A stretch of DNA of 64,000 nt from a virus. The notes beneath the pieces are model-generated. The model was given only the letters and a program-made list of their open reading frames with translations. It was not told the origin of the DNA and did not search any database. The stretch spans positions 32,001-96,000 of the IMG/VR virus record IMGVR_UViG_3300017774_005745; one strand, given 5' to 3'. The position numbers and the translations under genes were made by a program. How positions within the stretch are numbered: the stretch's first letter is position 1; every line of letters starts with the position of its first letter. Positions 27,792 through 61,854 of this stretch are shown in pieces.

Positions 27792-29630
27792 ATGCGTACA
27801 GCTGGCGTTATTTTCGACTTCTACGACGATGTTTCGGGTTCCCTCCTCAAGAAAGCGTGCCCAACTGCGGCAGACCTTCCTGAGATTGTGAAAGAAGCCC
27901 ATATCCTCAGCCCAGAGGAGCACGAGGTTCTTCGTGACGAGGCATACGCTCTCACGATGGTGAACAACGGAACGCCTCTTCGGAAGTTCGCCTGCGTTGA
28001 CGCCGGGAACACTGCCCTCTCTGTTCTCTACTTCTCCGACACGGCCGACCTTCTGCCTCACGCCGCAGTGAAGGTAGCTGCCGCAAACCTTGTCGAAGCG
28101 TGCGAAGACTTCGAGCTTCCAGTTCCAGGTTGGCTCAAGACCGCAGCGAAGACGGGAATGTCAAAGACCCGCAATCCATCAAAGCAACCTCAGCAGAGCG
28201 ATGATGTTGAGTGGAGCCAGAGAACGAATCTCAACAGCGTCCAAGGCGGAGCGGACTCAGGTCGAGTCATCCCCACCGCCAGCCAGATGAAGACGGCACA
28301 AGACCATGCTTTTAGCCATATGGCTCGTGTGAAGGGCGCAAAGAAGAAAGACGTCAACCTCGACAGTTTCCACAAGCTGAATCCAGAGGCCAAGCCAAAA
28401 GAGAAGAAGGCTGTGTCGGGGGAGTGGATTCGCGACTTGACGAGGAGTGGAGCTCAGGCTGCTCACGCAGCAGGGAATGCAAGCAAAGTATCTAACTTTG
28501 CGGCCCGCAACTCTATGGCTGGTATGAAGCCAGCAGGAAAGGCGCTGACGTTTGCTCAAAATCAGAAACATCAAGTAGCGGCGAACGCGGCTAACAGTGT
28601 CTCCTCCAAGATGGCCTCAGCCGAGACAACCGAGAAGTTGGCTCTGAGTCCTGGTATGGTTAATTCTCTTGCTCAGTCAGGAGCGCGTAAGAACCCTCTC
28701 AAGGGATTCCAGTTCATGAATCGAATGAATGCCAAGTCAAACGCTCTCTACGACACCGCAAAGAAACTCCCACAAGGGACAGGGGCCCGATCAAAAGTAC
28801 TAGATAGGGCATACAATGCTCGTGAAGGGGCTCTTGGCGCAGAGACCGGGTACAAGGCAAACAGACCTTCCGCTGGCATGAAGAGTGACGCTCGGATAAA
28901 CGCAGAGGTTAAGTACAACCCACAGGGCAAGTACGCGTCCGTCGTAGACGTCTCAGAAGCACAAGAGCAGGTGCTCGTGAAGAGAGCATCGGCTGAGCTC
29001 ACTGCACTTGGTGGGAAGTACCCTCTCGATTCCATGGCTGATGTTCAGAAGGCCGCCGAGTACTTCGAAACGAACTACAAAGAGATGGAGCCAGTCGAGG
29101 CTCATATCTTTGCTGTGAAGACTGCGGCACGTGCTGAAGAGATTGGTGTTCCGACCTCTCACACTCTTCAGAGATACGGTTCCATCGAGTACGCCATTGA
29201 CGTCGATGCACATATGGCCAATCGACTGGCCGTCACGCCACTTGAGTACAGAGAAGTGTACCAAGAGCTTCGCGAGAAGCGCGCCTCAATCGAGCCAGAG
29301 ACATTCGCAAACCTCCTCGCAGAGGCAGACGAAATCTCAGGGCTTCGTTGGGTGTGGGGTGGTGATGTCGCTGACCCCTACTACGCAACCTTCGGTAAGC
29401 AGGCAAATGCGTGGTCCTGGACCGGACGCACTGGAGATTTTACTACCGAAGAAGAGTTGAAGTGGCTTGCAAAGAACGGTAGACCTCTCGTCCACAAGCA
29501 CTTCTCAAGTGAGTTCACGGATTCGTTCATCAAGGACCCGATTACTATCTTTGAGTCCATGCCGGACGACTCGAAGGTCATCCTCTCTCGTCTTGCAAGC
29601 GGTCGCTTTGATGCGATGAATGCGAACTAA
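27792..29630 (+). CDS. Putative head/internal protein with K-x-A-delimited modules
   Basis: 612 aa, AAGGAG RBS; KVAA, KTAA, KTAQ, KKAV, KMAS, KLAL, KYAS and KRAS motifs bracket basic low-complexity inserts. Confidence 0.55.
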   Translation: MRTAGVIFDFYDDVSGSLLKKACPTAADLPEIVKEAHILSPEEHEVLRDEAYALTMVNNGTPLRKFACVDAGNTALSVLYFSDTADLLPHAAVKVAAANLVEACEDFELPVPGWLKTAAKTGMSKTRNPSKQPQQSDDVEWSQRTNLNSVQGGADSGRVIPTASQMKTAQDHAFSHMARVKGAKKKDVNLDSFHKLNPEAKPKEKKAVSGEWIRDLTRSGAQAAHAAGNASKVSNFAARNSMAGMKPAGKALTFAQNQKHQVAANAANSVSSKMASAETTEKLALSPGMVNSLAQSGARKNPLKGFQFMNRMNAKSNALYDTAKKLPQGTGARSKVLDRAYNAREGALGAETGYKANRPSAGMKSDARINAEVKYNPQGKYASVVDVSEAQEQVLVKRASAELTALGGKYPLDSMADVQKAAEYFETNYKEMEPVEAHIFAVKTAARAEEIGVPTSHTLQRYGSIEYAIDVDAHMANRLAVTPLEYREVYQELREKRASIEPETFANLLAEADEISGLRWVWGGDVADPYYATFGKQANAWSWTGRTGDFTTEEELKWLAKNGRPLVHKHFSSEFTDSFIKDPITIFESMPDDSKVILSRLASGRFDAMNAN

Positions 29631-29639
29631 GGAACGACA

Positions 29640-30170
29640 ATGACAACTAGAATCCACGTTGGTTCTTTCTTCGACGAGCTTGAGAAGATCTCCTCCGCAG
29701 GCCTGGAACTCGCAGGTCTTGGTGTTCTGGCCGCCCCGAGCGTTAAGACACTGATGGATCCTTCGGCAAAGAAGAAGGAGAAGAGCCACGCGAAGTTTGA
29801 AACTGCAGGACTCGGTCTTCTTGCAGCCCACCCTGCGTACGAGATTGGAAAGAAGCTGCTGACTAAGAAGGCAGCTACCGTCTCAAACCCAGCGATGATG
29901 CGTAATCACATGCTGGTCGATTCACAGAAAGCTGCCATCAAGGCACCTGCACAGGCCGCCCCAGCGTTGATGAAGAAAGACCCATCTCATTACTCAGACT
30001 TCACCCCTTCTGCATCTGTGGGACATCAGCCGGTCCAGAAGGCAGCTCCCGCCCCGATGAAGAGCACAAGGGCACTTCCTTCTGCTGGTCCTGTCATGAG
30101 CGCAGCACGCCCCGCAGCCAAGGCTACTGGCGTGATGGCTCGAATCGCTAACACGTTCCGGAAGGCGTAA
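29640..30170 (+). CDS. Basic Ala/Lys-rich putative internal virion protein
   Basis: N-terminal FFDELEKISS motif; AAGGA RBS. Confidence 0.5.
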   Translation: MTTRIHVGSFFDELEKISSAGLELAGLGVLAAPSVKTLMDPSAKKKEKSHAKFETAGLGLLAAHPAYEIGKKLLTKKAATVSNPAMMRNHMLVDSQKAAIKAPAQAAPALMKKDPSHYSDFTPSASVGHQPVQKAAPAPMKSTRALPSAGPVMSAARPAAKATGVMARIANTFRKA

Positions 30171-31105
30171 TGAAGAGTCCAGAACTAGAACTGTACGAGC
30201 GTCTTCGGGGTGCTGAGGCTAAGAAGCCAACGGCACCTTCGGAGGGGTCTGCCATGGAGAAGGAACTCAGGAAAGAGAATCCAGACGTCTCGACTCCACT
30301 TACAGTTCGAAACATCTTCACTCACTTCGATACGCATCCAGTAGTCCTGGACCTGGCACTCCTCAAGGCGTTTGGGGTTGATTGGTTCTCTTGGGATTCT
30401 TCTACACTGTACCAAGAGATTCAGCGTGTGTTCTTGTCTCAAATCTCAGAACACGCACGTGCGAAGATTCAAGCAATCAAGACTCTCCACGTCTCAGATA
30501 AGCCGTGGACGAGTTGGCAGGTCTTCGAGAAGGTCATTCAAGCTCTGAATAGCAGCATCCCTCGCTGGGAGTTCATGCAGGCTCCCTCGCTGGACCAGCT
30601 CTTTGCAGGGATTGATATCATGACCTCTATTCGTCCGGAGATTTTCGACGACGAAGTGAAGGCGTATATCGCAGCCGCTGTGTTGAACGAGGATGTCTTC
30701 TTCGTTCCCCCGCCCCTGGATTTTGCTCAGGTAGAAGTAAGTCACCCGAGGTACGTGTGTCTAGATTGTGGGAGCGAGGACTCTGCTCTCTTTCATGACG
30801 GAATCTGCGACACATGCTCCCAACGCTTTGACCCAGAGAACGGCTTCTCTTTCCAACCAGACCCAGACCTCATCCGAGACGGCAAAGGAAAGAACGTCAA
30901 GCTGGTTCTTCAGTTCGACCCGGACCCTATTGAGACTCGTTGGAATGAAGTAAAGGATACTCCAACGAAAGATGTAGACCTCCAAGAGACCCAGGTAGAC
31001 GTTCAAGTCGCAAAGCTTCTGCTCTCTCGCGACTACATGAACATCCGACGCAGACAACTCTCAGAGCAGCTTGTTGCTCTCAAGTCTTGGCTAGGGACCG
31101 TATGA
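30170..31105 (+). CDS. Hypothetical protein with zinc ribbon
   Basis: 311 aa; CLDCG...ICDTC; TAATG coupling. Confidence 0.75.
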   Translation: MKSPELELYERLRGAEAKKPTAPSEGSAMEKELRKENPDVSTPLTVRNIFTHFDTHPVVLDLALLKAFGVDWFSWDSSTLYQEIQRVFLSQISEHARAKIQAIKTLHVSDKPWTSWQVFEKVIQALNSSIPRWEFMQAPSLDQLFAGIDIMTSIRPEIFDDEVKAYIAAAVLNEDVFFVPPPLDFAQVEVSHPRYVCLDCGSEDSALFHDGICDTCSQRFDPENGFSFQPDPDLIRDGKGKNVKLVLQFDPDPIETRWNEVKDTPTKDVDLQETQVDVQVAKLLLSRDYMNIRRRQLSEQLVALKSWLGTV

Positions 31106-32085
31106 ACCTCATGACCGTTAGATCGCTCCTTGATGAGCTTGAGAAAATCGCCGTCTCTGAGGAGTGGATTCGACGCCATGCTAGGAGAGGATCCCTACTG
31201 AGACATTCACTCAGTCGCGATGAGCATGGCGCTAGACTCGAAGGAGATCCTTTTGGATCGTATTACAAGACTCTCAAAGGAAAAGAACGGCCCCCTTTTG
31301 CCGGTACGAAGAGTACGTTGAAGGATGACCCACGTACACGTAACAAGAGACAAGCTAAGATAGATGGTACGTGGGAAGGCTTTGATGACTACTCTAGAGG
31401 ACAGAGACTCAAAGAAGTAGGTGGAAAAGAATATAGTAAGCAGAAACCATCTAATAAATCACCACCTACTCAAACAAACTCATCACCGACATCTACTCAA
31501 AAACTTCCTTCTTTTGCTAAAAAACACTGGAAGAAGGGTGTTGCTGGTCTCGCTGCAACCGGCCTTGCTGCTGGTGCCTACGCTCTTCATAAGAAGAGAA
31601 AAAGTAATCGTGAGAAGACGGCAGAGTCCGAAGAGGGAGGTGCTGTGAACTACGTAAAGGGCATCGGAAAGAATCTCAAAGGGGCAGCTAAGGACCTAAC
31701 GCATCCAATCTCAAGGGCTCACCACGAGCTCAGGAGAATGGGACGAGACATCAACTCAGCGATTACTGGGAAGAAGGGTAATAGACAACTCACTCCCATG
31801 CAGAGAGCTGGTAAAATTGGGAACCACGGCCTAACTGCTGCATTTACCGTCCCGGCCGCCGCTGCCGCACTGAAGAAGGATCCCTCTGGACAAACATCCC
31901 GTGCAGAGCGAGTATCAAGATTCGTAGGCTCTACGATTGGAAACCTCGCCACCTCTCGAAGAGGTCTCTCGGGTTCGATTGCGGGAAGCATCGCCGGAGA
32001 CCAAGCAGGAAAGCTGGTCGGTAAGGGAATCAATAAGGTGACTGGTTTCAAGCCCAAGAAGACTGAACAAGAGGCAACTAAGTAA
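31102..32085 (+). CDS. Basic two-module putative internal virion protein
   Basis: LLDELEKIA N-terminal motif; internal EKTA; G/A-rich hydrophobic helices; ATGA overlap with the upstream gene gives start 31102. Confidence 0.55.
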   Translation: MNLMTVRSLLDELEKIAVSEEWIRRHARRGSLLRHSLSRDEHGARLEGDPFGSYYKTLKGKERPPFAGTKSTLKDDPRTRNKRQAKIDGTWEGFDDYSRGQRLKEVGGKEYSKQKPSNKSPPTQTNSSPTSTQKLPSFAKKHWKKGVAGLAATGLAAGAYALHKKRKSNREKTAESEEGGAVNYVKGIGKNLKGAAKDLTHPISRAHHELRRMGRDINSAITGKKGNRQLTPMQRAGKIGNHGLTAAFTVPAAAAALKKDPSGQTSRAERVSRFVGSTIGNLATSRRGLSGSIAGSIAGDQAGKLVGKGINKVTGFKPKKTEQEATK

Positions 32086-34163: not shown

Positions 34164-34176
34164 GTAGGGAGCTTCA

Positions 34177-34767
34177 ATGGTATCGCCACTCAAAGTAAAG
34201 ATGTTCGTTATCAGCGACCTTGTTCCGATCGCTGTCAATGTCATTACTCTGGGTCTCGCGATTGGAGCTCACCTTACTCCACAAGACCCACCCATCCCTC
34301 TCCCTGGGTGGGTAATTCTGTGGGCCGTCGTAGTTGCCTCATTCGCGATGACGATTGGGATGTTCGTTCAAAGACGGAACCTCTTCAAGCAGTATCGGTT
34401 CGTCTGTGACGGCATCATTGTGGGTTGGGCGTCTGACGAGTACGCAGTGAAGCCAGAGGAGTTTCAAGAACAGCTTCGAGAGCTTCTTGCCATTCTCGCT
34501 ACTGGCTTTCCGAAGGCTGGAGAGGCTCTGTATGGTTGCGCTGTTCTATTCAGGGAGCCGAAGTGGGCTCTGGATACGAGAGCCGGGAAGCTTCAGAACT
34601 TCGTTGCAGGTCTTCAAGATGGGATGTTCCTTCAGGTTGGTTGGAACGCCGACCTCGATAAGACGGCGCTGAAGCATGAGCTCACTCACCGGGTGTTTCA
34701 AGTCCAGGCGGGTGACCCTCCTCAAGATGTAGCGCATAAGAACATGAGCGACCTTGGAATCTTCTGA
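34177..34767 (+). CDS. Membrane-anchored protein with HExxH metallopeptidase-like motif
   Basis: Two N-terminal hydrophobic helices; LKHELTH near the C-terminus. Confidence 0.55.
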   Translation: MVSPLKVKMFVISDLVPIAVNVITLGLAIGAHLTPQDPPIPLPGWVILWAVVVASFAMTIGMFVQRRNLFKQYRFVCDGIIVGWASDEYAVKPEEFQEQLRELLAILATGFPKAGEALYGCAVLFREPKWALDTRAGKLQNFVAGLQDGMFLQVGWNADLDKTALKHELTHRVFQVQAGDPPQDVAHKNMSDLGIF

Positions 34768-34772
34768 AGGCT

Positions 34773-34799
34773 AAAAAACGACTCAACCTACGAGTCGTT
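34773..34799 (-). terminator. Intrinsic terminator of antisense islet 1
   Basis: Stem AACGACTC/GAGTCGTT plus an A-run (U-tract on the minus strand). Confidence 0.7.
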
Positions 34800-35015
34800 C
34801 TCCTTTGGAAAGAAGATACAGAGCTTCTCCAATCTCCCATGAATCTCTCTGAAACGCTCCGAGAGCTCTGACATCTCTTGGACGAGTGCTTTCGGAGCAC
34901 CCTGCATCTGTATCTTCACGAACAGGTTGTACTGCGTTCTCCAGAGGGCAAGAGTGTCCTCCGTGAACCGCTCCATCTCCTCTTTGGAGATGGGCTCGCT
35001 TACATCAATCCCCAT
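34788..35015 (-). CDS. Small helical hypothetical protein
   Basis: MGIDVSEPISKEEMERF...; start chosen by overlap with the upstream stop. Confidence 0.6.
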   Translation of the reverse strand: MGIDVSEPISKEEMERFTEDTLALWRTQYNLFVKIQMQGAPKALVQEMSELSERFREIHGRLEKLCIFFPKENDS

Positions 35016-35400: not shown

Positions 35401-35617
35401 CGTCTCTTTCCCCGTCCGCTCCAATCAAGAATAGAGACCCTTCCTGAGCAGCACATGACATGTGAGAGAACCTCTCTTCTGTTTGGTCGTCGAACTTGGA
35501 TCTCAGTAGCTGGTAAGTGCTTCCATCATCGGAGGTGGCGTATCGGTACGCGGTGAGTCGAATCACAGAGTCGTCTTCTGTGAACTCATCACCGCACACA
35601 CAGCAGGTGAGAGTCAT
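35393..35617 (-). CDS. Small Cys/His-rich hypothetical protein
   Basis: MTLTCCVCGDEF...SHMSC; ATGA-coupled start. Confidence 0.6.
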   Translation of the reverse strand: MTLTCCVCGDEFTEDDSVIRLTAYRYATSDDGSTYQLLRSKFDDQTEERFSHMSCAAQEGSLFLIGADGERDDV

Positions 35618-36244: not shown

Positions 36245-36247
36245 CTC

Positions 36248-36274
36248 CTTATACCCAGACAGTTGAATGACTTT
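36248..36274 (-). promoter_or_regulatory. Putative phage promoter, MAARW-N14-GGNATAAG class
   Basis: Minus strand AAAGT-CATTCAACTGTCTG-GGTATAAG at the head of islet 1. Confidence 0.5.
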
Positions 36275-46591: not shown

Positions 46592-46594
46592 CGA

Positions 46595-47443
46595 ATGAAA
46601 CACCCAGCTCATCACTTCATCAAGTACTTGATGGTGAAGGACCCCAAGACTGCCAACGCTGAGATTCTAAAGCGCTTGGAGGACTTTGGATTTCTATCTC
46701 CAGATGCGCCTTACCTGGAATTCATCAGACAAGAGCTCAAGGAAACTCCAGTAGGGTTCGACCCAGCAAATCGAATCCACCGTCCTTCGATGAGCTACCT
46801 TCGTCGTCATGGTATCTACGAGCTCTTCCATCCGTCTGACGCGATTCGAGAAGCATGGAAGATCCTCACCGACCCTTCTATTCGACTGAACGTTGAGCAG
46901 GCCTTGATGGCACGGTTGGATAGAAAAGCCATCGCTCTGAAGCTGAACAAGAAGAACGGCTGGCATCTCTCTGAGTCTGGGATGAAGGCGTTCCACGATA
47001 CCTTCTGGAACGTCGAGCTCCTCACTTGGGATGAGTGGGGCCGGTTCCTCTACGGCAGGTCAGGGATGTACGAGCGATACATGGCCATGCTCCAGGCGTC
47101 TCCTGAGCTCGCCATGTTCCATCTCCAGCTTCAACAGAACGTTGAGTCAAAGAACATGATTCAGCGCACGCAAGAGATTGCGTACTTCACCCTTGAGGAA
47201 GTCAATAGGAAGCCGGGCACAGGGCCAGACAAGGTGAAGGCCATCGGTGTACTTGGAAAGACCATCGTTGACTGTCACGATGCTCTCTCGACCTCTGATA
47301 TGGCGCTCAAGGACATCCTCAAGAACTTTGAGAGATTCCGCATGGACCATCCTCAGATTCCTCCTCCGGACATCAAGCAGCTCGCTCCAGGTGGGAGCTA
47401 CACTGGCAGTGGTGTTGAAGAGAAAGAAGTAAAAACCCACTGA
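46595..47443 (+). CDS. Hypothetical protein with HTH-like segment (terminase small subunit candidate)
   Basis: 282 aa; RKAIALKLNKKNGWHLSESGMKAFH helix-turn-helix-like stretch; upstream of terL. Weak inference. Confidence 0.3.
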   Translation: MKHPAHHFIKYLMVKDPKTANAEILKRLEDFGFLSPDAPYLEFIRQELKETPVGFDPANRIHRPSMSYLRRHGIYELFHPSDAIREAWKILTDPSIRLNVEQALMARLDRKAIALKLNKKNGWHLSESGMKAFHDTFWNVELLTWDEWGRFLYGRSGMYERYMAMLQASPELAMFHLQLQQNVESKNMIQRTQEIAYFTLEEVNRKPGTGPDKVKAIGVLGKTIVDCHDALSTSDMALKDILKNFERFRMDHPQIPPPDIKQLAPGGSYTGSGVEEKEVKTH

Positions 47444-47449
47444 GGTTGT

Positions 47450-48121
47450 ATGCCCTTCAAGTCCAAAGCTCAACAGCGATTTATGTTCGCAACCCACCCA
47501 CGCATGGCAAAGCGTTGGGCACACGAGACCAAAAACATGAAAAAGCTCCCAGAGAAGGTGAAGCAAGCGGGAATCCCAAAAGGGCTTAGAGCTATTGCGG
47601 AATCTGCTTTTGATACTGCCGGAGACCTCTCAAAGGCACAGCAGTACGCTGCTAGCAGAAATGCCGCGAACATCCACGGCAGAGGTCTAGGAATGGCCGC
47701 CCGCGATGGGTCTTTGATGAGTAAGTCGTATAATAAGAGACTTGCTAAGTCTGAAATTGAGCTTGCAAAGAAGCAGGTCGATTCTTCCTATCCAACTACA
47801 AGAGCAAGCAGACAACTCCAACACGGTATTGAAAATAGAAGAATGAGTAGAGACCTCCTATCTAAAAAGGCGGAGGCTGATAAAATCAAGGGCGGCCTCG
47901 CGGACCACCTGAAGTCCTCGGACTTCCCAAAGAAGAAACTGAAGGCAGGTCAGACGGTGGAGAAGGAACACACCAAGGACCCTGCAATCGCCAAAGAGAT
48001 TGCAAAGGACCATCTTACCGAAGATGGGAACTACTACGAGAAGTTGAAGAAGATGGAGAAGTCTGCCTTTGAGAAGATGTCTGCCAAACTGAAGAAGAAG
48101 ACGTCTGGGAAGTACTGCTAG
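47450..48121 (+). CDS. Three-module basic protein with C-terminal DUF5661-like domain
   Basis: MPFKSKAQQRFMFATHP N-module; KQAG-...-KKAE middle module; GQTVEKEHT...AKEIAKDHLTEDGNYYEKLKKME pattern (DUF5661-like). Confidence 0.65.
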   Translation: MPFKSKAQQRFMFATHPRMAKRWAHETKNMKKLPEKVKQAGIPKGLRAIAESAFDTAGDLSKAQQYAASRNAANIHGRGLGMAARDGSLMSKSYNKRLAKSEIELAKKQVDSSYPTTRASRQLQHGIENRRMSRDLLSKKAEADKIKGGLADHLKSSDFPKKKLKAGQTVEKEHTKDPAIAKEIAKDHLTEDGNYYEKLKKMEKSAFEKMSAKLKKKTSGKYC

Positions 48122-53187: not shown

Positions 53188-54291
53188 ATGGACGATTTTA
53201 CTAATTATCTCATGAGCGGAAAAAGCCACGCCAAGCTCTCTCCTGAAATGCTTGAGATGATGGGCAAAGAAGCTGCCACGATGTTCCTCAAAGATAGTAT
53301 CCCTCTCAATGAGGGTATTTCAAAACTCGCTGCCCAGCACGACTCTATCTCTCCAGAACAAGTGAAGCGAGTTGTGGAGTTTGCGAATACTGCTGTTTAC
53401 CTGGCGAAGCATGACCAGAGCAAGGCGTCTGGCTCTGAGCACAGCTACCCTCAGTTTGACCTGGCAGATGCTGGCCGGGTGATTCAAGATTTGTCTGATG
53501 GCGCACGTTCTACTGTGGTAACAGAGACCGACATCGACTACAACAGACAAATCAAGAAGACGAAGGTCTCTTCACCAGAGACAGAACGAGCTCTCTCCGA
53601 GCTTTTCAAGGTTGCTGAAGTTGAAAAGGAATACAGCAAAGAAACGATTGTTCACGAGGTCATGTCCGCAAAGGAGACTCTCTCTTCCCTGAGAGATAAC
53701 CTGATGGACAGGTACAACCAACATGAGGCCCTCTTCAAGGAAGCGGCGGCTGAGTTCTACGACGTGCTCAAGCGTCAGATTCTTGATGGAGGCTCCTTCG
53801 GCGAGGCTTACGCTGCAACCGAGACTATAACTGGCGACGAGACCAAGAAGCTTTTGGAGCCTGTTGTCCAGCGTCTTATTCAGGAGAAGGTTGCTTCTGT
53901 CTCGCAGCTAAAGAAGCAGCTCGCCGAGGGGGAAAAGTTTGCTCATAGCTTGGTTGATACAAGCCACCCTCTCATTCAGTCTTACTCGGCCATGATCATG
54001 TCCGGTGAAGAACTGAGAAGCACCATTGTTGCGTTGGATGAAGTGCAGGATGAGTTGAAGGATGTGAATGACTTCATCAAGAATGCATTCGCCCCTGCGG
54101 TGATGGCAGCAGGTAGAGGTCTCCTTGCTGCGGGGTCCGGCTTGCTGAGAGCGAAGACGCTTGGTGGGTCGATCGCAAGAGGGGCAGTCGGTGAAATGCG
54201 GAAGAATCCCGTCTCCACCGTTGCCAACGTGGCCGCCATGGTTCCCAAGAAGCAGCCAGCACCGGTTCCCCCTACTAACGTAGGAGGATAA
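53188..54291 (+). CDS. Putative head morphogenesis / internal protein
   Basis: 367 aa, AGGAG RBS; KVSS, KVAE, KVAS and KNAF motifs; first gene of the capsid operon. Confidence 0.5.
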   Translation: MDDFTNYLMSGKSHAKLSPEMLEMMGKEAATMFLKDSIPLNEGISKLAAQHDSISPEQVKRVVEFANTAVYLAKHDQSKASGSEHSYPQFDLADAGRVIQDLSDGARSTVVTETDIDYNRQIKKTKVSSPETERALSELFKVAEVEKEYSKETIVHEVMSAKETLSSLRDNLMDRYNQHEALFKEAAAEFYDVLKRQILDGGSFGEAYAATETITGDETKKLLEPVVQRLIQEKVASVSQLKKQLAEGEKFAHSLVDTSHPLIQSYSAMIMSGEELRSTIVALDEVQDELKDVNDFIKNAFAPAVMAAGRGLLAAGSGLLRAKTLGGSIARGAVGEMRKNPVSTVANVAAMVPKKQPAPVPPTNVGG

Positions 54292-54292
54292 A

Positions 54293-54709
54293 ATGCTCCA
54301 GAAGCGATTGCTGAAGCTCTCTTCAGTGTCACAGGCACTTCGCAAGCTTGCTGCTCGTGGGATGGGAAATCTTGCGGCAGTCGAGCGACAGGCGACCTTT
54401 AAGAACTTACAGAGCAATGCAGCCGCAGAGCACGCGGCCACTAAGGCAGCCCCAACTCCAGCCCCTACCCCAGTACAAACGAAATCGGCCCCAGTAGCTG
54501 CTGCATCGAAGGCGGCTCCTGCCGCAAAGCCAGGAGTGATGGGTCGAATCGCAGACCACTTCGGGAAGCAAGTAGGTAAACACGGAGTTCTCCCCGTCGC
54601 TGCTTCTGTTGCTGGTGGAGCGATGCTCGCATCCGGTGCAGCCAAAGTTCCGTCAAACTACCGAAAGTTTAAAGCTGGGTTTAGGCCAGAAAATCACCCA
54701 TACCACTGA
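54293..54709 (+). CDS. Basic Ala/Lys/Pro-rich putative internal virion protein
   Basis: LLKLSS and LRKLAA at the N-terminus; hydrophobic G/A helix near the C-terminus. Confidence 0.5.
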   Translation: MLQKRLLKLSSVSQALRKLAARGMGNLAAVERQATFKNLQSNAAAEHAATKAAPTPAPTPVQTKSAPVAAASKAAPAAKPGVMGRIADHFGKQVGKHGVLPVAASVAGGAMLASGAAKVPSNYRKFKAGFRPENHPYH

Positions 54710-55380
54710 TGGAGTATACTGTGAGCCACGAAGATATTCTAAGAGAAGTAAGTGAGTATGAGCCCGAGCTCATGGATAAGACAGCTCAGGCTATTGCCCT
54801 GACCTCTAAACTCTACCCTGCCTTCGCTCCTGGCATCTTCGAGGACTTTGAAGTCATCCTTGGGACAGTCGAGGAGAAGACTGCGAGTATTGCAGATTTG
54901 GCGAAGAAGGTCCCAGAGGGAGCGAAGAGAGTTGGATTGGCTCTCGGAGCTACGGCGGGTGCTGCTCTTATGAGTGCGCTTGCGACGGACCTCTATGATG
55001 CGGCTCGTAGAGGTATCTCCAAGGGGAGTAACTTCAAACGAATCATGGAAGCCAACCCTACTCTGAAGAAGGAAGTCGACAGTAAGAAACTCACGATGGC
55101 TTTCAACGCCATTCACCGTTTCGCTCCAGACTTCACTGCGGACCCGATGGTCGGTGGGGCTCTCCTTCGACAGGTTGCAGACCTTCCTGAGATGAGCGTG
55201 AAGATGATGCAGGACCTCATCTCCTCTCAATCATCTCTCAATAACGCGAAGTCGAAGCACTTCCAGGAACTGGCCAAGCTCCCCACTCTGCTCGCAAAGA
55301 CGGAGAAAATGGACGTTGGCGCACTCGGTGAAGCGACTTATAAGGCCATGGTAAACGCTCGTAAGCGCAACACGCCGTAA
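54709..55380 (+). CDS. Putative head-associated protein
   Basis: MDKTAQ and EEKTAS motifs followed by a G/A-rich helix (VGLALGATAGAALMSALA). Confidence 0.5.
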   Translation: MEYTVSHEDILREVSEYEPELMDKTAQAIALTSKLYPAFAPGIFEDFEVILGTVEEKTASIADLAKKVPEGAKRVGLALGATAGAALMSALATDLYDAARRGISKGSNFKRIMEANPTLKKEVDSKKLTMAFNAIHRFAPDFTADPMVGGALLRQVADLPEMSVKMMQDLISSQSSLNNAKSKHFQELAKLPTLLAKTEKMDVGALGEATYKAMVNARKRNTP

Positions 55381-55389
55381 GAGGCCCAG

Positions 55390-56970
55390 ATGGATAAGCA
55401 AATCCAGTTCTACGGTCAGACCGAGTCAGGCATCTTCTGCCAGTCTCTCTTTGGTTCCTACGGGACCTTTGAGAAGCAGGCAGGTGCTCCTCCGTTTGCT
55501 GACTGGGATACTGGAGATGCTCTTCGCAAGTACCTCAGCAAGCTTTCGAAGGAAGATAGAAAGAGCAACATCTACGTACTGGTGAATGCGCTTGGAGCTG
55601 GTGAGTACTTCGGCTCGAACATCAATTCCGATTACTTTCCTTGGAATGCCCTATCCCACGAAGGCAACGACTACGGGTTCAAGACGTTCGAGACCTTCGC
55701 CCACGCCTACCAGCACCACAAGAACAAGGACCCGACCCGAGCTTTCGGAGTGCCTGTTCTTTCTGTTCTGAATCACCCAATGAAGAGAGTCGAGCTCATC
55801 GTTCGACTCAACCGAGTCAAAGCAAAAGAAGAGCAAGCAGACGGTATCATCACTCGCATCGAGGGTGGTGAGTTTCCGGACGTATCGATGGGATGCAAGG
55901 TCCCATTTGACGTCTGCTCTATCTGCGGTCAGAAGTCGAAGACGCGGTTCGATTACTGCCAGCACATGATGCCTCCTGCTGAGCTCAGGAGCGTCTATGG
56001 GCCAAACAAGATTCTCCCAGATGGTCGTAGAATCTACGTCATCAACACACAGCCTAAGTTCTTCGACATCAGCTTCGTCTTCATCGGCGCTGACAAAACC
56101 GCTAAGGTCATGGCAAAGGTCGCTTCAAAGGGTGACTTGATTTGCCTGGGAGATGTTTGTGCTGTTCCTTCTCTCTCAACTCACGTACAAGAGGTCACTT
56201 CAGGTGACCCTGTTTCTGTCGCTGGAATGTTCAAAGCTGCTTCAGGAACGTGTGCTTGCGGGTGTGGGACCTGCGACCCATTCGAGAAGCTCGCCGAAGG
56301 ATTCGAAGTAAAGACCAGTGAGATTCTGAAACAAGTCCCTGCTGGTCACTTCACGAAGACGGTTCTTCCTGCCATTGAGGCTTCGGAACCAGACCTGGGA
56401 ACGGACTCTCTGGATGAGATGGCCGAGGGTCATTCGTTGAAGGACATCGTTGGCAATACCATGGGTCTTGGTATCGTCCTAAAGCCCCACGAGTTCCAGC
56501 GAATCGTTCTTATCCGTATGGGTGAAAAGGACCTGGCAAATGAGCTTGATTCAACTAACAGTGTCTTTAGACGAGTCGAAGGTGTCAATCCATTGCTCGA
56601 CACCGACCCATCTCTGGATGGCTCCAAACTCATCGACCTGCTCAAGTCCTTTATCTCTTCTCGTTCCGGACTTGGAGAGCCGCTCAAGCTCCGGTCAGCT
56701 CGTCCAGCGATAAATAAAATCCCTCTTCCCACTCGTAAATCAATCGAACATCCTATCTTAGACAAGGTCAGTGCTGCCTATAACGGTTATAGGCAGAATC
56801 TTTTGACGAAACTTTCAAAGGTTGAAGCAGTGGTTCAGAGCGACCCGAAGTTGAGAGCACAAATCGAGGGACGAACATTGTCGAGTCTGTTTGATAAGAC
56901 TTCTTCGCTCTCCTCTATCCTGACTCCCGATTCTGTGATGTACTTGAAGGGCGCATACACTGAGAGGTAA
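55390..56970 (+). CDS. Capsid maturation (prohead) protease
   Basis: DVSMGCKVPFDVCSICG (catalytic-Ser-like VSMG, 55879-55893) and FFDISFVFIGAD blocks of assemblin/HK97-type proteases; lies upstream of scaffold-like genes and MCP. Confidence 0.75.
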   Translation: MDKQIQFYGQTESGIFCQSLFGSYGTFEKQAGAPPFADWDTGDALRKYLSKLSKEDRKSNIYVLVNALGAGEYFGSNINSDYFPWNALSHEGNDYGFKTFETFAHAYQHHKNKDPTRAFGVPVLSVLNHPMKRVELIVRLNRVKAKEEQADGIITRIEGGEFPDVSMGCKVPFDVCSICGQKSKTRFDYCQHMMPPAELRSVYGPNKILPDGRRIYVINTQPKFFDISFVFIGADKTAKVMAKVASKGDLICLGDVCAVPSLSTHVQEVTSGDPVSVAGMFKAASGTCACGCGTCDPFEKLAEGFEVKTSEILKQVPAGHFTKTVLPAIEASEPDLGTDSLDEMAEGHSLKDIVGNTMGLGIVLKPHEFQRIVLIRMGEKDLANELDSTNSVFRRVEGVNPLLDTDPSLDGSKLIDLLKSFISSRSGLGEPLKLRSARPAINKIPLPTRKSIEHPILDKVSAAYNGYRQNLLTKLSKVEAVVQSDPKLRAQIEGRTLSSLFDKTSSLSSILTPDSVMYLKGAYTER

Positions 56971-57082
56971 CTTCAACCACGCAGCATAAGTGCAGACGAT
57001 AGAATGTCTGATTTCACAGCCTAGAGGCAACAGCCTCAAAGACGGCAAAAACCAAACTCGTAACACTCGGAGAAAAACACAA

Positions 57083-57892
57083 ATGGATCCACGTCTCGCT
57101 GAAATCTATGGAAATGGCGCTGAAGAAACCCAAGACGCAGAGAAGCTGGCCACTGCTGAGCTCGCTGAGAAGCTTGCCGCAGATGAGTCGGTGAACCTTG
57201 AGGGAATGTCATCTGACGACCTTGAGGCCCTCGCTCAGGAAGTCCTTGCCTCTGGTGCAGAGACTGAAGAGCCTGCCGCTGAGGAGCCTGCCGCAGAAGA
57301 GCAGTCTGAAGAGACCGAAGAGACCCAGGACAAGGAAGCCTCTGAGAAGCTTGCAGAAGCTGACTACCTCGGCCGCGTGATGGCTCACTCGTACGTCAAG
57401 GAGCTTCGCGAGATTGAGAAGACTGCTGGTAAGATGGGAGACTTGGCCAGGAAGGCAGGCGGCCACGTCAAGCGCCACGCTTCCGATGTTAAGGAAGGCT
57501 TTAAGGACCTCGCGCACATGGCGAGAAGCCCTCGTCAAGCAGCCAGCGCAGCCAAGGAGAGCATCAAGTCTCAGGGCGTGAAGGGAACTCTCAAGGGTAA
57601 CAAGAATGCTCTGAAGGCCCTCGGAGCAACCGGAACTGCTGCTGCAGGTGGTGCGTACAAGATGAAGAGCAAGAAGTCGTCCGAGACGTCTGCTCTCGAC
57701 ACCCTCGCAGCTCAGCGCGCTCTTGAGATTCTCGAAGAGAACGGCATTGACCTGAACGAGGAGACTGAGGAGAAGACTGCCTCGCCTGCCGACGTTCTTG
57801 CAGCCGCTGTTCAGGCTCGTGCAGTTGAGCTCTTGCAGGAAGAGGGCTACGAGTTCGAAGAGTCGGATGCCGAGACCGAAGAGGCTGAGTAA
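57083..57892 (+). CDS. Acidic scaffold-like protein with an embedded basic module
   Basis: GGAG RBS before ATG 57083; E/A-rich helices; EKLA (three times), KEAS, EKTAG, KKSS and EKTAS motifs. Confidence 0.6.
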   Translation: MDPRLAEIYGNGAEETQDAEKLATAELAEKLAADESVNLEGMSSDDLEALAQEVLASGAETEEPAAEEPAAEEQSEETEETQDKEASEKLAEADYLGRVMAHSYVKELREIEKTAGKMGDLARKAGGHVKRHASDVKEGFKDLAHMARSPRQAASAAKESIKSQGVKGTLKGNKNALKALGATGTAAAGGAYKMKSKKSSETSALDTLAAQRALEILEENGIDLNEETEEKTASPADVLAAAVQARAVELLQEEGYEFEESDAETEEAE

Positions 57893-57897
57893 TTTCT

Positions 57898-57931
57898 ACT
57901 CATGGGGGAGGGGAAACTCTCCCCCATGAGT
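57898..57931 (+). promoter_or_regulatory. 15-bp GAAA-tetraloop hairpin occluding the SD and start codon
   Basis: ACTCATGGGGGAGGG-GAAA-CTCTCCCCCATGAGT, with one G-U pair. Confidence 0.65.
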
Positions 57932-58219
57932 TCATTCAGGAGACGTTCTGTGGGTTCCAATAACAAGTCCAAGCTGAGTTTGGGAGTGTTACTGGGATTC
58001 TCAGATGAGCTCCAAAAGATTGCAATGAGCCCAATTGGGCCATCGACGGTTGGGGAAGTGACAAAGGTAGTATCCCGCAAGGGAACGTCACTATCGACAA
58101 AACAACCAAAGTATAGCAAAGTCCCAAAAGATCTGACCCCACCAGCATCTCCAGTAGACTTCGCTCAGAGTTCTAAAGCAGTTCAACCGCCCCCTGTAAC
58201 GATGCTTAGGGGAGATTAG
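57926..58219 (+). CDS. Small basic protein with FSDELQKIA motif
   Basis: Start 57926 or 57902, both inside the hairpin; shares the DELxKIA motif with other head-region ORFs. Confidence 0.55.
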   Translation: MSSFRRRSVGSNNKSKLSLGVLLGFSDELQKIAMSPIGPSTVGEVTKVVSRKGTSLSTKQPKYSKVPKDLTPPASPVDFAQSSKAVQPPPVTMLRGD

Positions 58220-58228
58220 TCGGAGACC

Positions 58229-59296
58229 ATGATGCACACAAAGCTTGCAGGTCAAGTCTCTCTGCACGAAATGATTTCAAGCGTGATTTCTGACGCTCAA
58301 GTCAAGCTCGCAGCAGAGGGCGATGAGAAGAAGATGGAGAAGAAGGTTCCCCCTTTCATGATGAAGAAGAAGGACTCAAAGAAGGAGGACGAGGAGAAGG
58401 AGAAGAAGTCCTCTGCCGACTTCGATTCTTCTGACATCGAGAAGCTCGCATCTGCTCTTGAGCAGGTCGGTGAGAAGATTGCTGCTGACGCTTCGTATCT
58501 CGGAACCGAGAAGAAGCAAGGCGGAGAGACTCTCGCTACGATGGCGATGGTTGGCGGCAAGCAGCCATACAAGCACGACAAGTCCAAGGCGCATAACGTG
58601 CCGATGCACACGCCAGAGCAGAAGGCAGAAGTCGGTGCCTCTACTCAAGTGCAGAATGACCACGCCAAGGCCCCAGGTGGAGCGGCATACCCAGCAAAGG
58701 GTGTCCTCAAGACTGCGGCTGAAGGCGTGATGGCCAAGATTCAAGCTCTCAAGAAGGGCAATGAGGGCGAGAAGAAGGAAGAGAAGAAAGAGGACAAGAA
58801 GGAGGAGCCCAAGAAGGAAGAGGCCAAGGAGAAGAAGTCGGCCGCTCTTGAGTTCATCCTGAACAAGATGTCTGAGGCAAAGGGCGGTGGTGAGGTCCTT
58901 ACCGATGACACTGTGAAGACCTCCCCTCCCTCCGACTCAAAGGGCGGTAACAACGTCCGTGGTCCCCTTGAATCGAACATGGGTGCCATCAACATGAAGA
59001 AGGTCGATGGAAAGGGCCCTCAGAAGAAGATGCTTTCTGAGGTTCTGACTGAGCCTGCGTACTCGAAGGCCCACGACTCAAAGGTTCATGAGAATCTGCG
59101 GAACGCCTCCAAGGGTGGCGTGAAGATCGCAGCAGCAAAGGCACTCCTTCAGAAGATTGCCGAGGATGAGAAAGATCCTCGTCATGAGCAACTGAAGAAG
59201 TCGCTTGAGAAGAAGAAGTTGGAGAAGAAGAGTATGGGTGCCGGTCCAGCAATGGGTGCTGGAATGTCGCCTCCGAAGCCAATGGGAATGATGTAA
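58229..59296 (+). CDS. Lys/Glu-rich scaffold-like protein
   Basis: 355 aa with about 10 K-x-A/S motifs (KLAG, KLAA, KSSA, KLAS, KIAA twice, KTAA, KSAA, KMSE, KIAE). Confidence 0.55.
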   Translation: MMHTKLAGQVSLHEMISSVISDAQVKLAAEGDEKKMEKKVPPFMMKKKDSKKEDEEKEKKSSADFDSSDIEKLASALEQVGEKIAADASYLGTEKKQGGETLATMAMVGGKQPYKHDKSKAHNVPMHTPEQKAEVGASTQVQNDHAKAPGGAAYPAKGVLKTAAEGVMAKIQALKKGNEGEKKEEKKEDKKEEPKKEEAKEKKSAALEFILNKMSEAKGGGEVLTDDTVKTSPPSDSKGGNNVRGPLESNMGAINMKKVDGKGPQKKMLSEVLTEPAYSKAHDSKVHENLRNASKGGVKIAAAKALLQKIAEDEKDPRHEQLKKSLEKKKLEKKSMGAGPAMGAGMSPPKPMGMM

Positions 59297-59315
59297 GGGA
59301 AAGGAGCCAACCAAC

Positions 59316-59678
59316 ATGGAAAAGCTAAGCAACGTTCAAGTCGGTGAGATGATGAAGCTGGCTGCCGGTTCGCTCCGTTCTCTTGCAGAAGAGAACCAGC
59401 AACTGAAGGAGAAGGTGGCAGCCTTCGAACACAGAGAGCGCGTGGAGAAGATTGCTTCTCAGATGGAAGAGAAGAGCCTCAACACCGACCTCTCGTACGA
59501 AGAGAAGATTGCCTCCCTCATGCGCAAGGACAACCTTGATGCAGTTGAAGAGGCAATTGGAATGTCTGCCCCTCAAACGAAGCTGGCGTCGATTTCTGAC
59601 TCTGGCAACGTTGTAGTTGAGGGTTCTGGAAATACTGCGGAAGATAGCTTCGCAGCTTCACTCGTTGGACTCGACTAA
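59316..59678 (+). CDS. Small coiled-coil scaffold-like protein
   Basis: AAGGAG RBS; EKLS, MKLAA, EKVAA, EKIAS and TKLAS in 120 aa. Confidence 0.6.
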   Translation: MEKLSNVQVGEMMKLAAGSLRSLAEENQQLKEKVAAFEHRERVEKIASQMEEKSLNTDLSYEEKIASLMRKDNLDAVEEAIGMSAPQTKLASISDSGNVVVEGSGNTAEDSFAASLVGLD

Positions 59679-59717
59679 CTCGCTCTACCAACACAAAACA
59701 CCTAACGGAGAATACAC

Positions 59718-60206
59718 ATGCCAGCCCCTCTTTTTGAACTTGTTTCTGAGTTGCAGACCCTTCACCGCCGCGACTTCCCTGTTGCGGATGAGACGATTCT
59801 TTCCCCTCTGACCGTTCGTCCGCTTGTCGAAGGCGAATGGCTTGAACTGAACTCTTCGTACCAGCTTGCTCGCGGTGGCGACAACAACGCGGGAACTGCA
59901 GACGAAGCAACCCAGTTCAACGTGTTCCCTGTTCACACTGAGCGTGGTCGTTACGACGTTCAGGCTGTCAAGAAGGTCAACGTCCTCATGTTTGGTATGT
60001 ATGAGGCAGAGACCCAGATTGTGAATACAACCTCACTCGTAGTTGGTTCCGCCTTGACCGTTCAAGACATCACTGTAGGTGGAATTGTTCGTCGTGGTCT
60101 TGCGCTGACTGGTGCGACTGCCAGCCGTATCTTCGTTGGATACGTTTCACGAGTCATCAGCTCCACGAAGATTCGTTTCGTCCACATGACCAACGTCAAG
60201 GCGTAA
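59718..60206 (+). CDS. Head decoration / cement protein candidate
   Basis: 162-aa beta-rich ORF immediately upstream of MCP; GGAG RBS. Confidence 0.5.
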   Translation: MPAPLFELVSELQTLHRRDFPVADETILSPLTVRPLVEGEWLELNSSYQLARGGDNNAGTADEATQFNVFPVHTERGRYDVQAVKKVNVLMFGMYEAETQIVNTTSLVVGSALTVQDITVGGIVRRGLALTGATASRIFVGYVSRVISSTKIRFVHMTNVKA

Positions 60207-60236
60207 TAACTAACTAACTAGAAACGGAGAAAACAC

Positions 60237-61361
60237 ATGAGTGCCGTCCCAGCAAAAGTAATGAACGATCTCTTCTTCGAAAAGATCGCAACGACCGAAG
60301 GCAAGGAGAAGATTGCCGAGTTCGGTGGAACGTACATCCGAGACCGTCTGCGTGAGGTTTCGTTTGCCCGCAAGATTCTCCCACCGCAGCCCGTGCAGCG
60401 CACCGAGTGCCAGCGTTCAGTGAACCACGACACCCTGGTGAAGATCATCGACATCGAGCCAAACTCGAAGGCCGTTGCTCTTACCTTCCGTGGCCAGCCA
60501 ACCGCTCGCTTCATCCGCGCTCCTCGTTTCGAGATTCCGTTCTTCACGATCTCGTCCGAGAAGTTTGAGAAGACGGAGCAGGAACTGCTCGCCTACGAGA
60601 TGCCCATCACCAAGATCATCGAAGAGAACTCGGTGAAGGACATCCAGGAAATCGAAGACCGTCAGTTCTTGACGTTCATCGAGGCGGCTGTTCAGGCGTA
60701 CCAGCTTGATGCAAACGGCAACGTTGCCACTGCATTCAACGCCACCAACGTCATCGCGAACTCGGTTGTTGGTGCCTCTGTGGTCAAGGGTGAAGGTACC
60801 CTGGCTGCTGGTGCAAACGACTTCGTCATCTACCCAATCCTCAAGCCGGACTTCGTGAAGCTCAAGAAGCTCCTGCACCGCCGTCGCCTGCGTGCGAACC
60901 AGATGGTCATGACCGAGCCGGATTATGACGACTTGACCAACTGGACCATCCAGGATGTTGGTATGACCATCGCTGGCGAGACTGCCACTGAGGGTTGGAA
61001 GGCCAACACGGTTGTCGGTCTGAAGATCATCCGCACCATCAAGACGGACCTCCTCCGCGAAGGTAACGTCTACTGCTTCACCGCTCCTGAGTTCATGGGC
61101 CGCTTCTACATCCTGAACCAGACCAAGTTCTACATCGACAAGATTGCGAACTTGATCACCTGGCAGTCGTGGGAAGACATCGCAATCGGTATCGGTAACA
61201 TCGCATCGATTGTGAAGCTGGAGCTCTTCGGAGGTTCAGTGACCCCAGGCGCGACGGATGTTGGTTTCGCGAACCTGTTGCCGAAGGCTGAGACTGACCT
61301 CTTCGCCATCAACAACCGCGCTGACGACGGTCTTACTGTCCCAGCCGTTGACCAGTTCTAA
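60237..61361 (+). CDS. Major capsid protein (HK97 fold)
   Basis: 374 aa; strongly C-ending codon bias; IRDRLREVSFARKILPPQPV N-arm; followed by a strong terminator; position after protease and scaffold genes. Confidence 0.8.
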   Translation: MSAVPAKVMNDLFFEKIATTEGKEKIAEFGGTYIRDRLREVSFARKILPPQPVQRTECQRSVNHDTLVKIIDIEPNSKAVALTFRGQPTARFIRAPRFEIPFFTISSEKFEKTEQELLAYEMPITKIIEENSVKDIQEIEDRQFLTFIEAAVQAYQLDANGNVATAFNATNVIANSVVGASVVKGEGTLAAGANDFVIYPILKPDFVKLKKLLHRRRLRANQMVMTEPDYDDLTNWTIQDVGMTIAGETATEGWKANTVVGLKIIRTIKTDLLREGNVYCFTAPEFMGRFYILNQTKFYIDKIANLITWQSWEDIAIGIGNIASIVKLELFGGSVTPGATDVGFANLLPKAETDLFAINNRADDGLTVPAVDQF

Positions 61362-61385
61362 TCAACGCTGAATCTGGTATACCTA

Positions 61386-61421
61386 GGGAGGAGGAGATTT
61401 TCTCCTCCTCCCTTTGTCTTT
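61386..61421 (+). terminator. Intrinsic terminator after MCP
   Basis: GGGAGGAGGAGA-TTT-TCTCCTCCTCCC followed by TTTGTCTTT. Confidence 0.85.
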
Positions 61422-61452
61422 AAAAACCCCTACCTTCTGAACGGAGAGTACA

Positions 61453-61854
61453 ATGTCACTTGAGAAAATTGCAGCAGACTTCGGATACGAAATCGATGAG
61501 ATTGAGTCTATCGCTCAGGAGTATCTTGAGAAGATCGCAATCTCAGATGAGCTCGCGGGGCGCGCTGGAGCAGAGCGATCTGTTCGTGCGGCAGAGGCAG
61601 CCGGAGTCAAGACAAAGGGGCTCGGACAGTACTCACCAAGTAATATGCTGAAGTCGCACGCTGCCGGGATGAAGTACATGGCCAGCCCGAAGGGTCAACT
61701 TCACCTGAGGAGAGGCATGAAGGCGAATATGACGGGTGGCACGGAGCAGTACTTCAAAGGCATTGGAGATATTGCCTCTGAACGCGGCAATAAGGTTACT
61801 GGTGCTTTCGCTCGCCTCGCTGGAAAAGGCCTGAACAAGATGCTCAAGAAGTAA
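61453..61854 (+). CDS. Acidic leader plus basic module; putative internal virion protein
   Basis: MSLEKIAA...YLEKIAIS, then a K/R/G/A-rich module. Confidence 0.55.
   Translation: MSLEKIAADFGYEIDEIESIAQEYLEKIAISDELAGRAGAERSVRAAEAAGVKTKGLGQYSPSNMLKSHAAGMKYMASPKGQLHLRRGMKANMTGGTEQYFKGIGDIASERGNKVTGAFARLAGKGLNKMLKK

Follow-up and report, generated by a model that had tools for sequence, protein, structure and literature searches.

The window analyzed here is a stretch of 64,000 nucleotides (nt), taken from positions 32001-96000 of one contig (196,807 bp) of an uncultured phage (IMG/VR record IMGVR_UViG_3300017774_005745). It encodes the virion module of this 196.8-kb phage, in which a short protein motif, Lys, a mostly hydrophobic residue, and Ala or Ser (K-h-A/S), recurs across many open reading frames (ORFs, named by their first position in the window). 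We describe this motif, the prohead protease that probably recognizes it, and a longer N-terminal leader that ends in it. Three small ORFs are followed by the protease (ORF 55390), the scaffold-like ORFs 57083-59678, and the capsid protein (60237). This gene order resembles the gp67-gp68-gp21-gp22-gp23 arrangement of phage T4 and, as for gp21-type proteases, the protease gene adjoins the scaffold and capsid-protein genes. An initial annotation had listed the motif-bearing ORFs, a FFEKIAT motif at 60273-60293, and leaders starting at 29667, 31126, and 57998, all of which were recovered at these positions. The central features are given below, with an arrow marking a candidate cut.

55390..56970, plus strand: prohead protease, 526 amino acids (aa); matches phrog_18299, head maturation protease, E value 8.7e-6
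55468..55482, plus strand: FEKQA↓G (FEKQA, residues 27-31), candidate N-terminal autoprocessing site
55882..55893, plus strand: VSMG with Ser166, candidate catalytic serine, invariant in 27 orthologues
56089..56343, plus strand: protease linker, with K-x-A/S at K236, K243, K282, K300, and K308
57083..57892, plus strand: scaffold-like acidic protein, 269 aa; start backed by orthologue alignment
57428-57679, within 57083: nested basic module, residues 116-199 (84 residues), flanked by IEKTA↓G and K-K-S
58229..59296, plus strand: Lys/Glu-rich, head-core-like protein, 355 aa, with 9 strict sites and 16 K-x-[AS]
59316..59678, plus strand: helical protein, 120 aa, with 6 strict sites (5 K-h-A and one KLS)
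60237..61361, plus strand: major capsid protein, 374 aa; matches phrog_2522, major head protein, E value 5.5e-11
60273..60293, plus strand: FFEKIAT (K16), lineage-specific site, K-h-[AS] in 14 of 68 orthologues
60306..60317, plus strand: EKIA↓E (EKIA, residues 24-27), conserved candidate maturation site

Motif counts were compared with per-protein shuffles for a module set of 22 plus-strand ORFs (27792-61854, not counting the RNA polymerase and the terminase; 7,041 aa) and for the 37 ORFs that make up the remainder of the window (12,960 aa). In the module, K[ILVTM]A occurs 50 times versus 16.4 expected (z 8.7), [ED]K[ILVTM][AS] 32 times versus 3.5 (z 15.5), and EK[ILVT]A 21 times versus 1.1 (z 19). 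In the comparison set, the same patterns occur 9 times versus 17.5, 4 times versus 4.1, and once versus 1.0 expected, respectively, which bears out the enrichment over shuffles that the initial annotation had anticipated. KIA and KTA are the top over-represented recurrent tripeptides in the module (K-[ILVT]-A, z 9.1). The order of the residues matters as well: E-K-h-A is found 21 times versus 0 to 7 times for each of 23 alternative orderings of the same residues, and K-h-A 47 times versus 12 to 18 times for alternative orders. In addition, a strict site lies within the first 35 residues of 12 of the 22 module ORFs (2.8 ± 1.5 in shuffles) and of 2 of the 37 other ORFs. All of the 14 ORFs listed as motif bearing contain the motif, but 29640, 47450, 54293, and 57926, with one or two sites each, are not individually enriched. 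Genome-wide, the K[ILVTM]A excess is limited to window positions 27792-61854 and a four-gene cluster at genome positions 13566-15644, and the remaining 190 genes are depleted in it (39 versus 61.7 expected; Poisson P of 0.0013). This depletion is consistent with avoidance of a protease site, a general dipeptide bias being the alternative.

The signal is repeated across relatives of the phage. A megablast query of positions 55000-63000 against the phage collection gave zero matches at the DNA level, and at the protein level the matches of the capsid protein are limited to Salmonella phage Arash (180.8 kb; annotated gp226, 28.8% identity, E value 2e-32) and three Vibrio phages. In IMG/VR, related stretches number at least 287, and their contigs reach 210 kb. 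Across 52 related IMG/VR loci, [ED]K-h-A occurs 631 times versus a mean of ~47 for alternative orderings, with an excess in every locus. The Arash head module contains 14 K-h-A versus 5.5 ± 2.3, carried by gp220, by gp225, and by gp222 just after its protease domain. Conservation was measured as identity to the window sequence at 36 sites in seven orthologue alignments and averages 0.72 for Lys, 0.47 for the middle residue, 0.63 for Ala, and ~0.47 for the flanks. A site kept in at least 70% of orthologues was considered positionally conserved. The 31 sites of this kind, numbered from a putative cut after Ala/Ser, have E at P4 in 45%, I/L/V/T at P2 in 78%, A (82%) or S (18%) at P1, and A/S/E/G at P1' in 75%, giving the consensus hydrophobic-E-K-[I/L/V/T]-A followed by A/S/E/G. 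By analogy, the joint conservation of Lys and Ala matches the P3-x-P1 layout known from motifs of the gp21/assemblin fold. With Lys and Ala conserved and with sites placed in low-confidence linker and hypervariable regions, the motif behaves like a protease recognition site, as had been proposed.

The 526-residue protease consists of a propeptide-like segment (residues 1-39), a gp21-like catalytic domain (~40-233), a linker (234-318), and a helical C-terminal domain (319-526). In the AlphaFold2 model, the predicted local distance difference test (pLDDT) score is 80 to 90 at residues 40-232 and below 50 at residues 1-38 and 233-318. When model residues 49-233 were compared with T4 gp21 (5jbl_B) in VIA-align, 137 residues superimposed with Z 9.8 and a root mean square deviation of 3.1 Å; the next unrelated rows reach Z 5.9, clearly below gp21. 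The top three Foldseek matches of the model are gp21 chains (probability, 0.84 to 0.96), and the herpesvirus proteases of human cytomegalovirus (HCMV) and Epstein-Barr virus (EBV) score Z 5.4 and Z 4.7. Judged by this predicted model, ORF 55390 has the gp21/herpesvirus-assemblin-type fold, in support of the maturation protease proposed in the initial annotation. Ser166 in VSMG is invariant. His109 and His110 (HH-x-NKD), also invariant in the alignment of 27 orthologues, are the candidate catalytic histidines.

The protease carries the motif both before its catalytic domain (FEKQA) and after it (DKTA, residues 235-238; AKVA, residues 242-245), in agreement with the initial annotation. K29 is invariant and A31 at least 90% conserved within an N-terminus that is otherwise variable, rich in indels, and modeled at pLDDT <50. 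Likewise, K236/A238, K239, K282/A284, and K308 are invariant or nearly so in the 27-sequence alignment of an otherwise hypervariable linker. The protease family comprises 2,977 clusters at 50% identity (E value, ≤1e-3). A K-x-A follows within 25 residues of the last strand in 104 of the 114 representatives that have the last-strand anchor, taken from the best 150.

The protease gene itself varies in length among relatives. In some of them, the linker is expanded by 500 to 630 residues, and in two loci (L074:3402-5390 and L030:3901-5850) it contains a PF18823 InPase (pyrophosphatase-like) domain with a Pfam E value of ~1e-32, bracketed by K-x-A sites. An InPase-like sequence motif was recognized by eye in the proteases of L049 and L071. 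In relatives with an expanded linker, the protease polypeptide itself appears to carry an enzyme module. A second kind of variation is found in L003:1915-6939 (also in L004, L018, and L078), where one to three insertions of ~350 to 390 aa interrupt the catalytic domain at points corresponding to window residues ~75, C169 (directly behind the serine of VSMG), and ~C190. The L003 insertions at ~75 and ~190 contain Intein_splicing and LAGLIDADG domains and are inteins in a prohead protease.

Many sites are found in the scaffold-like proteins encoded between the protease and capsid-protein genes. ORF 57083 is built of three parts that differ in charge: the N-terminal part has 9 K+R and 34 D+E, the nested module 19 and 5, and the C-terminal part 3 and 22. 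The N- and C-terminal parts are conserved and acidic, and the middle is hypervariable, cannot be aligned, and is always basic. The sites EKLA (K21), EKLA (K89), and EKTA (K113) are kept in most orthologues. This 84-residue module is the clear case for the many small basic peptides that the initial annotation had envisaged, a proposal borne out at the level of architecture only. The suggestion that motifs sit at boundaries between acidic and basic blocks also held in part. It applies to 57083 and 61453, and sequences upstream of the sites are more acidic (P = 0.0025), but a charge switch across them is not significant (P = 0.25).

The strict sites of 58229 and 59316 agree with the motif counts given earlier. 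In 58229, K[ILVTM]A occurs 7 times versus 1.6 expected, and K26, K72, K299, and K309 are kept in 89 to 100% of orthologues. In 59316, the 6 sites compare with 0.6 expected (P < 0.0005), and K3, K33, and K45 are kept in 56, 46, and 58 of 65 orthologues, respectively. The 59316 product is probably a scaffold or core protein that is degraded in maturation.

In the capsid protein, FFEKIAT had been singled out as the N-terminal site. It is present but lineage specific, and the conserved site is EKIA↓E, where 67 of 68 orthologues have K-h-[AS] and K25 and A27 are invariant. Arash apparently has K-E-A at the corresponding place, judged by eye from the two N-terminal sequences without a computed alignment. 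A third site, K302, falls within a highly conserved stretch. An AlphaFold2 model of the capsid protein, built from 28 sequences with 77% mean identity, reached a mean pLDDT of 50 and was not used.

Some copies of the motif are part of a longer leader, F-x-D-E-L-E/Q-K-I-A/S, which is present in three ORFs of the window.

29640..30170, plus strand: leader-bearing protein, 176 aa, FFDELEKIS at 29667-29693
31102..32085, plus strand: leader-bearing basic protein, 327 aa, LLDELEKIA at 31126-31152
57926..58219, plus strand: leader-bearing small protein, 97 aa, FSDELQKIA at 57998-58024

A search of the six-frame genome translation with the pattern [DE][EQ][LMF][EQSR]K[ILV][AS] gave five matches, all on the plus strand and near ORF N-termini (window positions 29673, 31132, and 58004; genome positions 13692 and 157769). 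The leader starts ~8 to 12 residues from the ORF start in most copies and at residue 25 in ORF 57926 as called. Four ORFs had been proposed to share it; three were confirmed, but the fourth (ELREIEKTA) is a weak match. Orthologues of 29640 carry, for example, FQDELEKIA, FRDELEKLA, or FADEFQKIA and diverge downstream, and those of 31102 keep F-x-[DE]-E-[LM]-E-K-[IL]-[AS] in front of differing bodies. The DELxKIA leader is, as suggested, a conserved N-terminal tag on otherwise divergent proteins. As in T4-type targeting, the tag is shared by unrelated proteins with dissimilar bodies, and it ends in the enriched motif, here K-I-A/S, a putative cleavage site.

The two leader matches outside the window lie in the following genes. 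Genome positions 157718-158626 (L103:119-1024) encode a kinase-like 302-aa protein with the leader FSDELQKIA. Its Pfam Pkinase match is below threshold (E value, 0.008), it has an atlas feature score of 0.96 to OspG-type/viral kinase clusters, and its template-modeling (TM) score to Ser/Thr kinases is ~0.5; it is possible that this protein is packaged or injected. Genome positions 13566-15644 (L102) encode three small basic proteins, one with the leader GFNDELEKIA, and a 281-aa sigma-70-like protein (Sigma70_r3, 27.1 bits) with an N-terminal WVLEKIS. Virion preparations of Arash include a sigma factor (PMC10585845).

Taken together, we consider it probable that the gp21-like prohead protease cuts after the Ala/Ser of K-h-A/S and that the leader is a capsid-targeting tag. 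We infer cleavage, its bond, the enzyme, and the targeting of the leader to the capsid from the motif statistics, the conservation, the context of the sites, the fold of the protease, and the places at which the leader occurs. ORF 55390 would recognize h-[E/D]-K-[I/L/V/T]-[A/S], with Lys at P3, a tolerant P2, and Ala/Ser at P1, and would cut after the Ala/Ser, ahead of a small or acidic residue. During prohead maturation, it would trim its own N-terminus and sever its own linker, remove ~27 residues from the capsid protein, and fragment 57083, 58229, and 59316, thereby freeing the basic module from 57083. Short N-terminal pieces would be removed from about a dozen other virion proteins. The leader tag would bring unrelated proteins into the prohead in the manner of the T4 capsid-targeting sequence and would then be clipped off.

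Several points weigh against this account. The position of the scissile bond, after Ala rather than after Lys, is argued by analogy. At the sequence level, the protease has no match to a Pfam peptidase family at an E value of 0.05, and its family profile, searched against PDB sequences at an E value of ≤10, matched a chance coiled coil and nothing else, so that homology to gp21 is argued from the fold. Alternatively, the conserved GADKTAKVMAKLA segment may have a structural role as a helix in the protease. Furthermore, some conserved sites lie in well-conserved, probably folded regions, such as K302 of the capsid protein and K459 of the protease; these are probably uncut, so the motif is by itself no predictor of cleavage. 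In the candidate virion RNA polymerase, K-h-A is found at the level of chance (3 versus 3.8 expected). Finally, the Arash virion proteomics paper gives coverage percentages, and its supplement consists of gene sequences without a peptide list.

The same statistics, conservation, and N-terminal bias would also fit if K-h-A were an uncut docking or assembly motif that attaches its carriers to the protease, to the scaffold, or to the inside of the capsid, with processing elsewhere or absent. The leader, which is longer than a cleavage site requires, suggests binding. We nevertheless regard such an arrangement as unlikely. Up to nine strict copies (16 K-x-[AS]) in one small protein, and copies flanking the protease's own domain in low-confidence linkers, make a pattern typical of autoprocessing or degradation, in contrast to docking, and the alternating-position conservation matches substrate binding by a gp21-type fold. 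Binding and cleavage are moreover not mutually exclusive.

It is very unlikely that the sites are cut by another enzyme, that is, a host protease or a second phage protease rather than ORF 55390. The assignment of ORF 55390 to the motif is putative, and there is a precedent in staphylococcal phage 80alpha, in which a host protease reportedly trims the N-termini of the capsid and scaffold proteins. However, the motif co-occurs with the protease family across relatives up to the distance of Arash, whose capsid protein is only 28.8% identical, invariant copies stand at the borders of the protease's own domain, and elsewhere in the phage genome the motif is depleted.

Many carriers are predicted to be helical and are rich in E, K, and A, weak paralogy links some modules (43763 and 47450 have a similarity score of 76 versus a shuffled maximum of 68), and [LI]-x-E is mildly enriched too (z 2.5). 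The motif could hence be seen as a by-product of composition or shared ancestry without a role in recognition. This explanation is hardly credible given that permutation controls already disfavor it: none of the 23 alternative orderings is enriched, nor are R-h-A (z 1.4) and K-h-G (z −1.8) in the module proteins. Conservation also stands out at Lys and Ala only, and the motif is found in unrelated proteins and within stretches too variable to align. A further alternative, a signal in the DNA (a promoter or a methylation or packaging site) whose translation is EKIA by chance and to which the frequent GAGAAG at the first two codons might point, is refuted by the codons at the sites, which vary synonymously (GCA, GCT, GCC, and GCG in similar numbers for Ala and 14 codons for the middle residue) and therefore place the signal at the protein level; no 12-mer recurs more than twice, and the leader matches all lie in one reading frame at ORF starts.

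Among the closest known counterparts of the proposed processing system is that of T4, whose prohead core contains gp21 with the scaffold/core proteins gp22, gp67, and gp68, whose internal proteins IPI-III and Alt carry a capsid-targeting sequence, and whose protease motif is L/I-x-E. The two phages share the protease fold and the position of the protease gene just upstream of scaffold-like and capsid genes. In both, the recognition rule (a putative one in the window phage) spans three residues and is set at P3 and P1, scaffold-like proteins contain many copies of the motif, the protease is bordered by sites for self-processing (candidate sites in the window phage), and unrelated proteins carry an N-terminal tag that terminates in the motif. 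T4 differs in its L/I-x-E rule, as opposed to K-h-A/S, and in a tag to which the leader described here is unrelated. In addition, the window phage has a portal gene 21 kb away, and its protease continues, after a long linker, into an additional helical C-terminal domain of ~200 residues and has no sequence-level match to Pfam peptidase families. Judged by enrichment, the module proteins do not follow the Glu-P1 rule of gp21-type proteases (L/I-x-E or A/S/G-x-E). The T4 prohead core system has been reviewed elsewhere (PMC9026906).

The proteases phiKZ gp175 and SPN3US gp245 cut after A/S/G-x-E (PMC10052503, PMC5694885), the SPN3US motif being A-x-E (PMC10052503). These are likewise large phages, whose head and ejection proteins are in many cases trimmed of N-terminal propeptides that contain several motif copies, and they encode a virion-associated, multisubunit-type RNA polymerase. 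In contrast, the window phage would have Ala/Ser at P1 instead of Glu and Lys at P3, its RNA polymerase is a single beta-beta' chain, and [ASG]-x-E is not enriched in its module proteins (z 1.3; a test of enrichment, not of cleavage). Herpesvirus assemblin, represented by the HCMV and EBV proteases, cuts (V/L/I)-x-A↓S. It resembles the putative system in the Ala at P1, the small P1', the P3-x-P1 layout, and the distantly similar fold (Z 5.4 and 4.7). It differs in its hydrophobic P3, versus Lys in the window phage, and in cutting only a few sites; its pattern [VLI]-x-A-[SA] is not enriched in the module proteins (z −0.1). In phage P1, an N-terminal capsid localization signal loads the large enzyme DarB into the head, and maturation involves the prohead protease Pro (PMC9024508). 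In P1, cleavage of the capsid protein falls between E120 and S121 (PMC9024508), unlike at the site proposed here, and the signal sequence is unrelated. Within our incomplete coverage of the literature on prohead-protease cleavage motifs, SPN3US, phiKZ, T4, and P1 are Glu-P1 systems, and no K-x-A rule was found. To our knowledge, and in the literature searched, the phage members of the gp21/assemblin fold all cut after Glu. Although the mechanism is known, the K-h-A/S recognition code appears to be undescribed.

Should cutting take place at K-h-A/S, sequence data could be used to predict the mature virion proteome for a large family of uncultured jumbo phages, with 2,977 protease clusters and IMG/VR viral contigs of 175 to 210 kb. 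Such predictions would extend to propeptides, to the N-termini of mature proteins, to the peptides released, and to enzymes that may be injected. The gp21/assemblin fold would also gain a Lys-P3/Ala-P1 specificity, and foreign proteins could be loaded into capsids by means of a short tag. A broader and more doubtful idea, which we put forward tentatively, is a family-wide code for loading and cutting, in which the tag would suffice to load arbitrary proteins, K-x-A linkers would create polyprotein-like carriers, and the pieces, once freed within the capsid, would be delivered with the DNA. Tagged examples would be the kinase-like protein and the sigma-70-like protein with its shorter WVLEKIS N-terminus; the carriers would include the pyrophosphatase-like domain in relatives' protease linker and the basic, DNA-associated module inside the scaffold. 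If true, this would be a double-stranded DNA phage counterpart of viral polyprotein processing with a Lys-P3/Ala-P1 specificity not described before, spread over ~3,000 clusters at 50% identity.

Further motif-bearing ORFs and neighboring genes of the module are the following.

27792..29630, plus strand: 612-aa protein with conserved N- and C-terminal domains and a hypervariable basic middle with K-x-A islands
32085-34163, plus strand: portal protein, with PHROG matches phrog_2833 and phrog_16240
36395-42658: single-chain beta-beta' RNA polymerase, 2,087 aa, with Pfam Rpb2 and Rpb1 domains
43763..48121, plus strand: 942-aa protein (43763), ORF 46595, and ORF 47450, virion-module proteins
53188..55380, plus strand: three ORFs upstream of the protease (53188, 54293, and 54709), each with an N-proximal motif
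61453..61854, plus strand: small accessory protein, 133 aa, MSLEKIA↓A and EYLEKIA↓I followed by a basic body

The accessory protein 61453 contains EK[ILVT]A twice versus 0.0 expected. Only close relatives have an accessory ORF at this place, downstream of the capsid-protein gene and ahead of the next conserved one. Its product starts with MSLQKIA in L002, MSVEKIA in L003, and GFADELTKIA in L007 (315 aa), the bodies differing and the K-I-A-type N-terminus remaining constant. In 27792, K[ILVTM]A occurs 6 times versus 1.7 expected, and AVKVAA, LKTAA, and IPTASQM-KTA are conserved amid indels in the alignment. Upstream of the protease, sites K24 and K57 of 54709 keep their Lys at 0.62 and 0.88.

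The 942-aa protein 43763 has 11 strict sites (K[ILVTM][AS], 11 versus 3.1 expected; P < 0.0005), and ORF 46595 has KTA at residue 18. The ORFs at 43763-48121 adjoin a possible baseplate-hub gene (a match below threshold), and it is not demonstrable for all 14 motif-bearing ORFs that they encode head proteins. Shared modules starting right after K-x-A (VSxEWIR in 27792/31102 and GIPKG in 43763/47450) were considered as markers of the P1' boundary and set aside as anecdotal; the similarity score of 27792 and 31102 (53) shows no excess over shuffles (45 ± 7). The C-terminus of 47450-48121 matches Pfam DUF5661 (E value, 4e-10), and a DUF5661-like sequence, recognized by eye, follows the N-proximal K-V-A of the L085 protein at the 31102 position. 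This recurrence hints at module shuffling between tagged proteins.

The portal protein contains five K-h-[AS] sites (K[ILVTM][AS], 5 versus 1.4 expected), zero of which are preceded by E/D. Judged by its position and size, ORF 50074 may be the large terminase. In the RNA polymerase chain, beta (Rpb2 domains, residues 147-926) is fused to beta' (Rpb1 domains, residues 1170-1988, with NADFDGD), and its gene sits within the virion module, adjoining the possible baseplate-hub gene.

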